From NCBI RefSeq assembly GCF_057098645.1, contig NZ_CM169472.1: a stretch of 64,000 nucleotides of DNA, one strand, 5' to 3'. Within the stretch, counting starts at the first letter, position 1. Every line of letters starts with the position of its first letter. Of the stretch, positions 42,342 through 45,437 are shown piece after piece. A program made the position numbers.

Positions 42342-45300
42342 TGACACTAACGCCCGCACATTGCTGCGGGCTTTTTGATTCATTTCGCAAATGTGCTGAC
42401 ATTTTCCCCTCTAATCCGTACCATACACGCCACAGTTTTTATATCAGATTTCTTATGCTGGGCGTTCCGGCATGACGCATACTCTTCTGATGCCATATAA
42501 CGAATTGAGTCGCTTTTAAATGTCGCAAAATCAAGAAATTAGCAAGAAAGAACAATACAATCTGAACAAATTACAAAAACGCCTGCGTCGTAACGTGGGC
42601 GAAGCCATTGCTGACTTCAATATGATTGAAGAAGGCGATCGCATCATGGTTTGCCTCTCCGGGGGTAAAGACAGCTATACCATGCTGGAGATTCTGCGCA
42701 ATTTGCAGCAAAGCGCGCCAATCAATTTTTCGCTGGTGGCTGTTAACCTCGATCAAAAGCAACCGGGCTTCCCGGAACACGTTCTGCCCGAGTATCTTGA
42801 AAAGCTGGGCGTTGAGTACAAGATTGTTGAAGAGAACACTTACGGTATCGTGAAAGAGAAGATTCCAGAGGGCAAAACCACTTGCTCACTGTGTTCTCGG
42901 CTACGTCGCGGTATCCTTTATCGCACCGCAACGGAACTGGGGGCGACGAAGATCGCGTTGGGCCACCATCGTGACGATATCCTGCAAACGTTGTTCTTAA
43001 ATATGTTCTACGGCGGCAAGATGAAAGGTATGCCTCCGAAACTGATGAGCGATGATGGCAAACATATCGTTATTCGTCCGCTAGCCTACTGCCGCGAGAA
43101 AGATATTCAGCGATTTGCCGATGCAAAAGCGTTCCCGATTATTCCGTGCAACCTGTGCGGTTCACAGCCTAACCTGCAACGTCAGGTGATTGCTGACATG
43201 TTGCGTGACTGGGATAAACGTTATCCAGGGCGTATCGAGACGATGTTCAGCGCGATGCAGAATGTGGTGCCGTCGCATCTGTGCGATACCAACCTGTTCG
43301 ATTTCAAAGGCATCACCCACGGTTCTGAAGTGGTTAACGGGGGTGATCTGGCGTTTGATCGCGAAGAGATCCCACTACAACCGGCGGGCTGGCAGCCAGA
43401 AGAAGATGAAAATCAGTTGGATGAGTTACGGCTGAATGTGGTTGAAGTGAAATAACCAGGATAGCGCCCGATGCGCAAGCGTATCGGGCTACTCTTATGG
43501 AGGCCGGATAAGACGCGGCCAGCGTCGCATCCGGCAATCCCGAATAAGATGTTTACTCTTGCACCCGGCAATTCAACATTTTATTATTTTAATAACCGCA
43601 CCCGGCACGTTTTTCCTTTAATCTTCCCGCCCTGTAACTGTTTCCATGCTTTATGAGCAACAGCCTGACGGACCGCGACATAGACATGCGCCGGATGCAC
43701 GGCGATTTTGCCAATATCTGCGCCATCAAGCCCGATATCTCCTGTCAGTGCACCTAATACATCACCCGGGCGCATTTTGGCTTTTTTCCCGCCATCGATA
43801 CACAACGTTGCCATTTCTGCTTCCAGCGTCACAATGGAACTATTAGCTGGCGGCGTTTGCCAGTTAAGTTTTATCTGCAACATGTCAGAAATGATATTGG
43901 CCCGCAGTGCTTCTTCCGGAGCACAGAAACTGATCGCCAGACCGCTATTTCCTGCACGAGCTGTACGACCGATGCGATGTACATGAACTTCAGGGTCCCA
44001 CGCCAGCTCAAAGTTCACCACCAGCTCAAGCGATTTAATATCCAGACCACGCGCAGCAACATCAGTCGCGACCAGTACACGGGCGCTACCGTTAGCAAAA
44101 CGTACCAGGGTCTGATCGCGATCGCGTTGCTCCAAATCGCCGTGTAATGACAATGCACTTTGCCCTACTTCATTCAGCGCGTCGCAGACAGCCTGGCAAT
44201 CTTTTTTGGTATTGCAAAACACCACGCAAGAGGATGGCTGATGCAAGCTTAATAACCGTTGCAACAGAGGAATTTTGCCTTTGCTGGATGTCTCATAAAA
44301 TTGTTGTTCAATGGGTGGCAAAGCATCTGTTGAGTCAATTTCAATCGCCAAAGGATCGCGTTGCACTCGTCCGCTGATTGCGGCGATGGCTTCCGGCCAG
44401 GTTGCCGAAAACAGAAGCGTCTGTCGAGATGCTGGCGCAAAACGGATGACATCATCAATGGCATCGCTAAATCCCATATCCAGCATGCGGTCGGCCTCAT
44501 CCATCACCAGCGTATTCAACGCATCCAGTGATACCGTGCCTTTTTGCAGGTGATCCAGCAAACGCCCCGGCGTTGCCACGATAATATGCGGCGCATGTTG
44601 CAACGAATCACGCTGCATACCGAACGGTTGACCACCGCACAACGTCAAAATTTTGGTATTTGGCAGAAAACGCGCCAGCCGACGCAATTCACCTGCCACC
44701 TGATCCGCCAGTTCACGCGTAGGACACAGCACTAAAGCCTGGGTTTGAAATAGCGACGCATCAATTTGCTGTAACAAGCCGAGGCCAAAAGCCGCCGTTT
44801 TGCCGCTGCCGGTTTTCGCCTGCACGCGAACATCTTTTCCGGCAAGGATCGCCGGAAGCGCGGCGGCCTGCACCGGCGTCATAGTTAAATAACCCAACTC
44901 ATTAAGGTTCGTGAGTTGGGCGGGAGGCAAAACATTCAGGGTAGAAAAAGCGGTCACAATCTATTCTCGTGGTCATCGACGCAAAGTTAGCAGGCGCGTA
45001 TCCTCGCAGATCTACGCTCACGATGCGACAATTTAATCGGTTCTTCATCGGGTGGTGGGTCAGGCATGGGTTGCGGGCGAGGGATCGGATCGGGCACTGG
45101 AACAGGATCGCCAGGAATCGGTTCAGGGACAGGAATTTGCAAATAAATAAGTGTCGTCATATTTCCCTCCGGTCATTGGGTGGACTCTTAAAGGGTAGAC
45201 GCTGATAAATAACAGGCAAAAAAAAGCCGACTCATCAAAGTCGGCGTCGTACGAATCAATTGTGCTATGCAGTAATTCAAAAAAGGAAGTAAGACAATAT

Positions 45301-45437
45301 GGAGCGCAACGCCCATCGCTTGACGTTGCATTCACCTGCAAGAGAGATATTGCCCTGAATGGGTAGAGAGTTTATTGACTTCGCTCAAACTTTGCGGCGT
45401 TTTTGTATACAGACAGCCGGAAAAATTGCTTTTGTTA

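Follow-up and report, generated by a model that had tools for sequence, protein, structure and literature searches.

Does the minus strand between zntB and dbpA encode a protein, given that an open reading frame (ORF) of 72 aa runs through it, or does it carry a small RNA gene, and, in the latter case, is that RNA made from a promoter of its own or as the tail of the zntB transcript? The question arises in a stretch of 64,000 nucleotides of contig NZ_CM169472.1 (RefSeq assembly GCF_057098645.1), referred to below as the window, in which a reading made from the sequence alone had assigned the interval to the small RNA FnrS. The analysis described here leads us to conclude that the element is fnrS and that it is almost certainly served by its own FNR-dependent class II promoter. 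The identity of the gene, the anatomy of its promoter and terminator, and its conservation are established by the comparisons presented below; the features concerned are collected in Table 1.

Table 1. Features of the fnrS locus and the fnr gene in the window
Feature	Coordinates	Strand	Basis
fnrS, 122-nt Hfq-dependent small regulatory RNA	45218..45339	-	Rfam RF01796 and identity to K-12 b4699
FNR binding site TTGAGCGAAGTCAA	45375..45388	-	Sequence, pattern match, position in homologues, published ChIP-seq peak
-10 element GCAATAT (hexamer CAATAT, -13..-8)	45347..45353	-	Conservation
5' stem-loop of FnrS, nt 1-47	45293..45339	-	Rfam structure, MFE fold, RNAalifold
Single-stranded C/U-rich region UUACUUCCUUUUUUG, about nt 48-62, main target-pairing region	45278..45292	-	Rfam consensus, RNAalifold
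Intrinsic terminator, stem GCCGACTT/GAGTCGGC and T8 tail	45218..45245	-	Terminator scan, compensatory changes
72-aa TTG ORF, mechanical, not a gene	45123..45341	-	ORF list; no coding conservation
ynaL, 57-aa proline-rich small-protein gene, real, downstream of fnrS and separate from it	44987..45160	-	Annotation, immunoblot
fnr, activator gene	54942..55694	+	ORF translation

Identity of the gene and its neighborhood

An Rfam scan matched model RF01796 (frnS) to positions 45339..45222 of the minus strand, within the gene at 45339..45218, with a score of 134.8 bits (E = 4.4e-24), the gathering threshold (GA) of this model being 60 bits; the match is untruncated and covers model positions 1 to 119 of 119. 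The curated ncRNA fnrS (b4699) of Escherichia coli K-12 MG1655, located at 1409129-1409250 of NC_000913.3, corresponds to the same 122 nt, and neither these nor the 130 nt upstream of them, which include the FNR box and the -10 element, differ between K-12 and the window. An alignment running from the promoter through fnrS into the beginning of ynaL has 370 identical positions out of 371; the sole mismatch, G for A, lies not in fnrS but just 5' of the ribosome-binding site of ynaL. The neighbor order zntB - fnrS - ynaL - dbpA is likewise common to K-12 and the window. The first base of the RNA, the G at 45339 with which GCAGGTGAATGCAACG... starts in the minus-strand reading, was assigned as +1 on the basis of the annotated K-12 gene and the first position of the Rfam model. 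The sequence-only reading, which had taken this strand for FnrS and had proposed an Rfam scan and a comparison with K-12 fnrS as ways of checking this, was therefore correct. In a megablast search with positions 44900-45700 as the query, 5393 of 5426 complete E. coli genomes contain the region. FnrS has been characterized since 2010, and the element is a known one; nothing in the window copy is new, and a copy identical to that of K-12 has no value as a discovery.

What the locus does offer is a lesson in annotation. In the 15 PGAP-annotated E. coli records that we inspected, zntB, ynaL, and dbpA are present and fnrS is omitted, so that the gene is unannotated rather than misannotated and recovering it takes an Rfam pass. 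Downstream of fnrS lies ynaL, whose product, MTTLIYLQIPVPEPIPGDPVPVPDPIPRPQPMPDPPPDEEPIKLSHRERRSARIRAC, is preceded by a good ribosome-binding site (GGAGGG, 4 nt, ATG). This gene is annotated in K-12 (b4743) and in PGAP genomes, and the window YnaL has the same sequence as the tagged YnaL of VanOrsdel et al. (2018), whose production was shown by tagging and immunoblot (PMC6001520). The 72-aa ORF covers the first 38 nt of ynaL in a different frame. The sequence-only reading, which noted only this ORF on the six-frame track, is right that the ORF is listed but misses ynaL, which lies in the same zntB-dbpA gap. The 72-aa ORF should be kept out of the output of naive ORF callers; the adjacent 57-aa gene, by contrast, is real.

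The gene for the activator was said to lie 9.6 kb away in the same window, and an ORF whose product we take to be FNR is indeed found there, 9603 bp from the fnrS +1 at 45339. It is nested within a longer, TTG-started ORF (54885..55694).

For the comparative analysis, homologues were drawn from contigs representing one genome per species with a pattern that comprised RNA nt 12-42 only, which returned at least 120 stretches. Conservation of nt 12-42 is therefore partly a matter of construction, as the retrieval pattern spanned those bases. The counts given below refer to the 118 sequences with enough flank, i.e., the window and 117 loci among the matches listed. The sampled genera include Citrobacter, Enterobacter, Serratia, Yersinia, Erwinia, Pantoea, and Dickeya, as well as Pectobacterium, Photorhabdus, Edwardsiella, Hafnia, Arsenophonus, and Sodalis. 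In the window, zntB ends about 95-99 nt 5' of fnrS on the same strand, and a same-strand zntB is found 80-140 nt upstream in 101 of the 109 loci with enough flank for this count, among the matches listed. In the six listed loci of the Rahnella/Rouxiella group, zntB is instead downstream and convergent, and the FnrS sequence is kept. On the other side, 38 of 98 loci have dbpA after fnrS, and ynaL was detected in 13 of the 98, again among the matches listed. FnrS has also been detected downstream of zntB by RNA-seq of Yersinia pestis (PMC3672283).

Anatomy of the promoter and competing readings

The putative FNR site, TTGAGCGAAGTCAA, agrees with TTGAT-N4-ATCAA at 8 of the 10 specified bases; its half-sites, TTGAG and GTCAA, each deviate from the FNR consensus at the inner base. 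Its center, between 45382 and 45381, is at -42.5 relative to +1. Matches of this quality are nothing unusual: with up to two mismatches allowed, the pattern occurs 55 times in the window, compared to 39.4 ± 6.2 expected, which is about the chance frequency, and the box on its own was dropped as evidence. Its significance derives instead from its position, its conservation in homologues, and published ChIP-seq data.

When the region from -90 to -20 was searched for the best FNR-like site, this site was found at exactly -42.5 in 114 of the 118 sequences, among the matches listed, and in these 114 it agrees with the consensus at 8 or 9 of 10 positions. An ungapped information profile of the same 118 sequences served as a footprint. 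Among the matches listed, the columns of the FNR box reach 1.1-2.0 bits, with the highest values, up to 2.0 bits, at T-48, G-47, C-44, A-42, T-39, C-38, A-37, and A-36; the spacer from -31 to -19 is unconserved, at 0-0.5 bits; and the -10 element, GCAnnnT at -14..-8, has 1.9 bits at each of G-14, C-13, A-12, and T-8. No recognizable or conserved -35 hexamer for fnrS is seen in the window or in the 118 sequences, among the matches listed, and a scan of both strands of 44900-45700 with the sigma-70 consensus finds no complete promoter for either fnrS or ynaL/dbpA. The absence of a complete -35/-10 promoter is what would be expected if transcription depends on an activator, and a box at -42.5 combined with a -10 element and no -35 element is how a class II promoter that depends on an activator is built. 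As with other class II FNR promoters, a single FNR site occupies the -35 position, there is no -35 hexamer, and the -10 element is recognizable. In class II activation, FNR contacts RNA polymerase. Taken across Enterobacterales, the homologues thus outline a class II FNR promoter as a clear phylogenetic footprint in which the box keeps its place at -42.5.

The same arrangement is on record for K-12: for fnrS, Myers et al. (2013; PMC3688515, Table 1) report a ChIP-seq peak of FNR together with a single site at -42.5. The half-site pair that the sequence-only reading had placed about 42 bp upstream is therefore located where the literature has it, and the class II promoter that it had proposed fits both the published peak and the homologues. 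The spacing is not the more common -41.5, at which narK and caiF have their FNR sites; it is shared with ydhY, which is also listed at -42.5 (PMC3688515). An FNR-like site with one mismatch is also present 5' of uspF; the ChIP-seq paper (PMC3688515) makes no mention of uspF/ynaF.

Two other accounts of this promoter region have to be weighed against an FNR-dependent promoter of fnrS. One is that TTGAG-N4-GTCAA is there by coincidence and that another factor drives the promoter, which the commonness of such matches in the window (55 versus 39 expected) might seem to favor. However, the best site stays in the same position in 114 of 118 sequences, among the matches listed, while the flanks diverge; moreover, published ChIP-seq locates FNR at this very site (PMC3688515). 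We see practically no chance that this account is right. The other is that the RNA is mainly a product of the zntB 3' untranslated region (UTR), released by processing of read-through transcripts and not initiated at an FNR-dependent promoter of its own. The proximity of the zntB end on the same strand speaks for it, as does the lack of any terminator-like site between -100 and -31, none being found in the window or in 116 of the 118 homologues, among the matches listed. Against these points stand the positionally fixed FNR box and the -10 element, both conserved ahead of an invariant +1; FNR occupancy at the fnrS promoter by ChIP-seq (PMC3688515); expression that is reported to be FNR dependent and anaerobic (PMC11572966); and the Rahnella/Rouxiella arrangement, in which an FnrS sequence is retained even though zntB is convergent with it. 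An origin mainly from the zntB 3' UTR is very unlikely on this evidence, and an FNR-dependent promoter belonging to fnrS itself remains the reading that we adopt.

RNA structure and overlapping reading frames

The terminator hairpin, GCCGACTT-TGAT-GAGTCGGC, extends over 45245..45226 of the minus strand and is followed by exactly eight T at 45225..45218, just as the hairpin and U8 tail had been described from the sequence. An independent terminator scan agrees, reporting 8 pairs, 5 of them G-C, and a 4-nt loop, and a terminator-like site is seen at this place in 117 of the 118 homologues, among the matches listed. To assess the fold as a whole, the Rfam structure was mapped onto the homologue alignment and its pairs were counted, with 3' partners slid by 1-3 columns as a control. 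Standard pairs occupy 90.9% of the cells, versus 31-39% with slid partners, and compensatory double changes affect 10 pairs, half of which belong to the 8-pair terminator stem (for example, A-U 48 and G-C 45), all of this among the matches listed. There is little covariation in the 5' stem because its sequence is nearly invariant, and in the small middle hairpin the pair count from the matches listed gives no support for the innermost pair. In the RNAalifold consensus, obtained independently, both the terminator and the 5' stem-loop reappear, and nt 48-65 are single stranded. The fold of the single sequence is only modestly stable (z = -1.67, with 14 of 200 shuffles at least as stable), which is unsurprising for a small RNA with a long single-stranded pairing region; such a weak score was set aside as evidence for FnrS.

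Bases 1-11 of the RNA, which lie outside the retrieval pattern, are invariant or nearly so in 103 distinct sequences, among the matches listed, and nt 1-9, which contain the pairing bases G4 and G5, are invariant. The pairing mutants of Durand and Storz, as cited in PMC8595263, are fnrS-I (U57-59), fnrS-II (C47-U49), and fnrS-III (G4C, G5U). The positions so defined by mutation belong either to the invariant 5' end or to the C/U-rich single strand.

Two ORFs overlap the RNA. The TTG of the 72-aa ORF is made up of RNA bases -2, -1, and +1, and a second ORF, of 47 aa, starts with the ATG at +9 (45331). At the start position of the 72-aa ORF, only 13 of the 118 homologues have a start codon, most having TCG or CCG, and the first stop in this frame is met at any of 18 positions, the earliest at codon 14 and the latest beyond codon 50 (both among the matches listed). 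The terminator stem lies 88 to 99 nt from +1 in the homologues listed, a spacing that changes by single bases, and indels of 1-2 nt break the 72-aa frame in the matches listed. Both ORFs were rejected as genes. The warning that the 72-aa ORF should not be annotated as a coding sequence (CDS) is thus borne out by the scarcity of start codons and the nontriplet indels. The same reading had spoken of fnrS as hidden under this ORF; the ORF does exist, but the concealment was overstated, since the RefSeq records inspected call no CDS there.

It could still be argued that the locus is protein coding, one or the other ORF being translated and FnrS being an mRNA or an RNA with a dual function. Both ORFs are present in the sequence, and the +9 ATG, which is preceded by AGGUGA, is kept in 115 of the 118 homologues, among the matches listed. 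Its conservation is already explained by its location inside the invariant pairing and stem region, however; the Shine-Dalgarno-like AGGUG stops 1 nt short of it, and the ATG itself is buried in the 5' stem of FnrS. Indels of 1-2 nt in the U tract alter the downstream peptide of the 47-aa ORF between genera, and the 72-aa frame suffers from the rare starts and scattered stops described above. Because both ORFs extend beyond the terminator in the window, the 122-nt RNA has no in-frame stop for either. Finally, no CDS is annotated at the 72-aa ORF in K-12 or in the 15 PGAP records. Translation of either ORF is thus extremely unlikely, and we treat FnrS as a noncoding regulatory RNA.

Proposed mode of action and a possible link to zntB

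For FNR occupancy, anaerobic induction, dependence on Hfq, and targets we rely on the literature on the identical K-12 sequence, and it is from there that FNR-dependent accumulation under anaerobiosis would carry over to the window copy. In that literature, FnrS is under FNR control and expressed upon a shift to anaerobiosis; it represses many genes that are not needed anaerobically, among them iscR, with whose 5' UTR it pairs with the aid of Hfq (PMC11572966). On this basis, the window copy would work as follows. Without oxygen, dimeric [4Fe-4S] FNR would bind TTGAGCGAAGTCAA at -42.5 and would recruit and activate sigma-70 RNA polymerase at a promoter with the conserved -10 sequence GCAATAT and no -35 element. 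The RNA would begin at G 45339 and end at the GCCGACTT/GAGTCGGC-U8 terminator, giving 122 nt. ArcA and CRP have a minor influence on FnrS levels. Hfq would be bound by the internal U-rich stretch as well as by the U tail; a U8 tail and a U-rich single strand are both present in the window FnrS. The invariant 5' end and the C/U-rich single strand (approximately nt 47-62) would then pair with the translation-initiation regions of mRNAs that are dispensable anaerobically, such as sodB, gpmA, cydDC, and iscR, so that their translation would be blocked and their levels lowered.

In its organization, FnrS resembles RyhB and OxyS, Hfq-dependent small RNAs of stress regulons. These, too, come from stand-alone genes with a single dedicated transcription factor each (Fur and OxyR, respectively), end at an intrinsic terminator whose U tail is long, and repress multiple targets by pairing at ribosome-binding sites. 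It differs from them in its signal, anoxia sensed through FNR, and the sequences are unrelated. FnrS and RyhB have targets in common, according to PMC8595263.

The absence of a terminator upstream of fnrS, which counted in favor of a zntB-derived RNA above, may have a consequence that is compatible with an FNR-dependent promoter. As zntB lacks an intrinsic terminator, the first one downstream of it is that of fnrS, an arrangement that most Enterobacterales retain, and zntB transcripts would probably reach the fnrS terminator unless Rho stops them. It is conceivable, if rather doubtful, that zntB mRNAs routinely carry the whole FnrS sequence as their 3' UTR. If so, zntB transcription would cross the FNR-bound promoter, and a longer RNA containing FnrS would exist under aerobic conditions. 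Expression of the zinc transporter could then be coupled to FnrS synthesis, through promoter occlusion, a processed 3'-UTR small RNA, or sponge-like behavior.

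Possible transcription through the zntB-fnrS-ynaL interval

The zntB stop codon lies at -99 relative to the fnrS +1, and the stretch from this stop to the fnrS promoter (45341-45434, minus strand) contains no intrinsic terminator in the window. The same gap is free of intrinsic terminators in 116 of the 118 homologues (the window and 117 homologous loci) among the matches listed. Since the first terminator found 3' of zntB is that of fnrS, the zntB mRNA may, judging from the sequence, carry FnrS as its 3' UTR; a literature search on zntB with fnrS yielded no paper on such an arrangement. 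Upstream of the fnrS FNR box, an A-tract at -64 to -61 (0.8 to 1.7 bits) is kept across the homologues among the matches listed, in otherwise unconserved surroundings. This tract may serve as an UP-like or a DNA-bending element.

Downstream of fnrS, the interval also includes ynaL, which is absent from the account of this interval in the sequence-only reading. The encoded protein is identical to K-12 YnaL, which has been detected by immunoblot, and the start of the gene is overlapped by the 72-aa ORF that had been judged spurious. Among the matches listed, ynaL was found in only 13 of 98 homologous loci, in Escherichia, Citrobacter, and some Enterobacter-like genomes. It is separated from the fnrS terminator by 57 nt (within 44958-45217, minus strand), and no sigma-70-like promoter for ynaL and dbpA was seen in these 57 nt or elsewhere in 44900-45700. 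One possibility is that both genes are transcribed by terminator read-through from fnrS or zntB.

The locus in other E. coli records

In the inspected PGAP RefSeq records, including NZ_CP028379.1, zntB, ynaL, and dbpA are annotated and the fnrS ncRNA is not; the curated K-12 entry was the only one of those examined to include it. The 801-bp query (window 44900-45700) matches E. coli STEC388 in two pieces spread over 1578 bp (NZ_CP041425.1, 2224353-2225930) with an annotated IS1A transposase beneath the match, so that an IS1 is inserted somewhere within the zntB-fnrS-ynaL-dbpA interval of this strain.

Additional sites and elements in the window

Two more FNR-like sites were found (see the table below). 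TTGACAAATATCAA stops 20 bp short of the fnr start codon (54942), a position that fits the known FNR autoregulation site. TTGATCTAAATTAA precedes the presumed uspF ATG (41910) by 77 to 90 bp; the FNR ChIP-seq study (PMC3688515) makes no mention of uspF/ynaF.

Features of the window discussed in this part
Feature	Coordinates	Strand	Remarks
ALIL pseudoknot	9662-9778	-	RF01497, 120.2 bits
MicC sRNA gene	40291-40411	-	Rfam, 118.1 bits, above gathering threshold
Presumed ompN	40636-41769		
TTGATCTAAATTAA	41820-41833		FNR-like, one mismatch
Presumed uspF ORF	41910-42344	+	
ttcA	42520-43455	+	
ynaL	44987-45160	-	57-aa proline-rich small protein; between fnrS and dbpA
A-tract	45400-45403	-	-64 to -61; 5' of FNR box
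McaS/IsrA sRNA gene	48717-48812	+	Rfam, 117.4 bits, above gathering threshold
TTGACAAATATCAA	54909-54922		FNR consensus, one mismatch

About 175 bp separate ttcA from the presumed uspF (region 41838-43455), with the presumed ompN and then micC farther out; in the K-12 record, the 23-kb Rac prophage begins within the end of ttcA. Hence, the genome studied here appears to lack Rac at this site. The names ompN and uspF are presumed from the K-12 gene order. MicC and McaS/IsrA are further, already known sRNA genes. The ALIL pseudoknot is the signal for frameshifting in an IS3-family transposase, and an insertion sequence is therefore probably present at its position.
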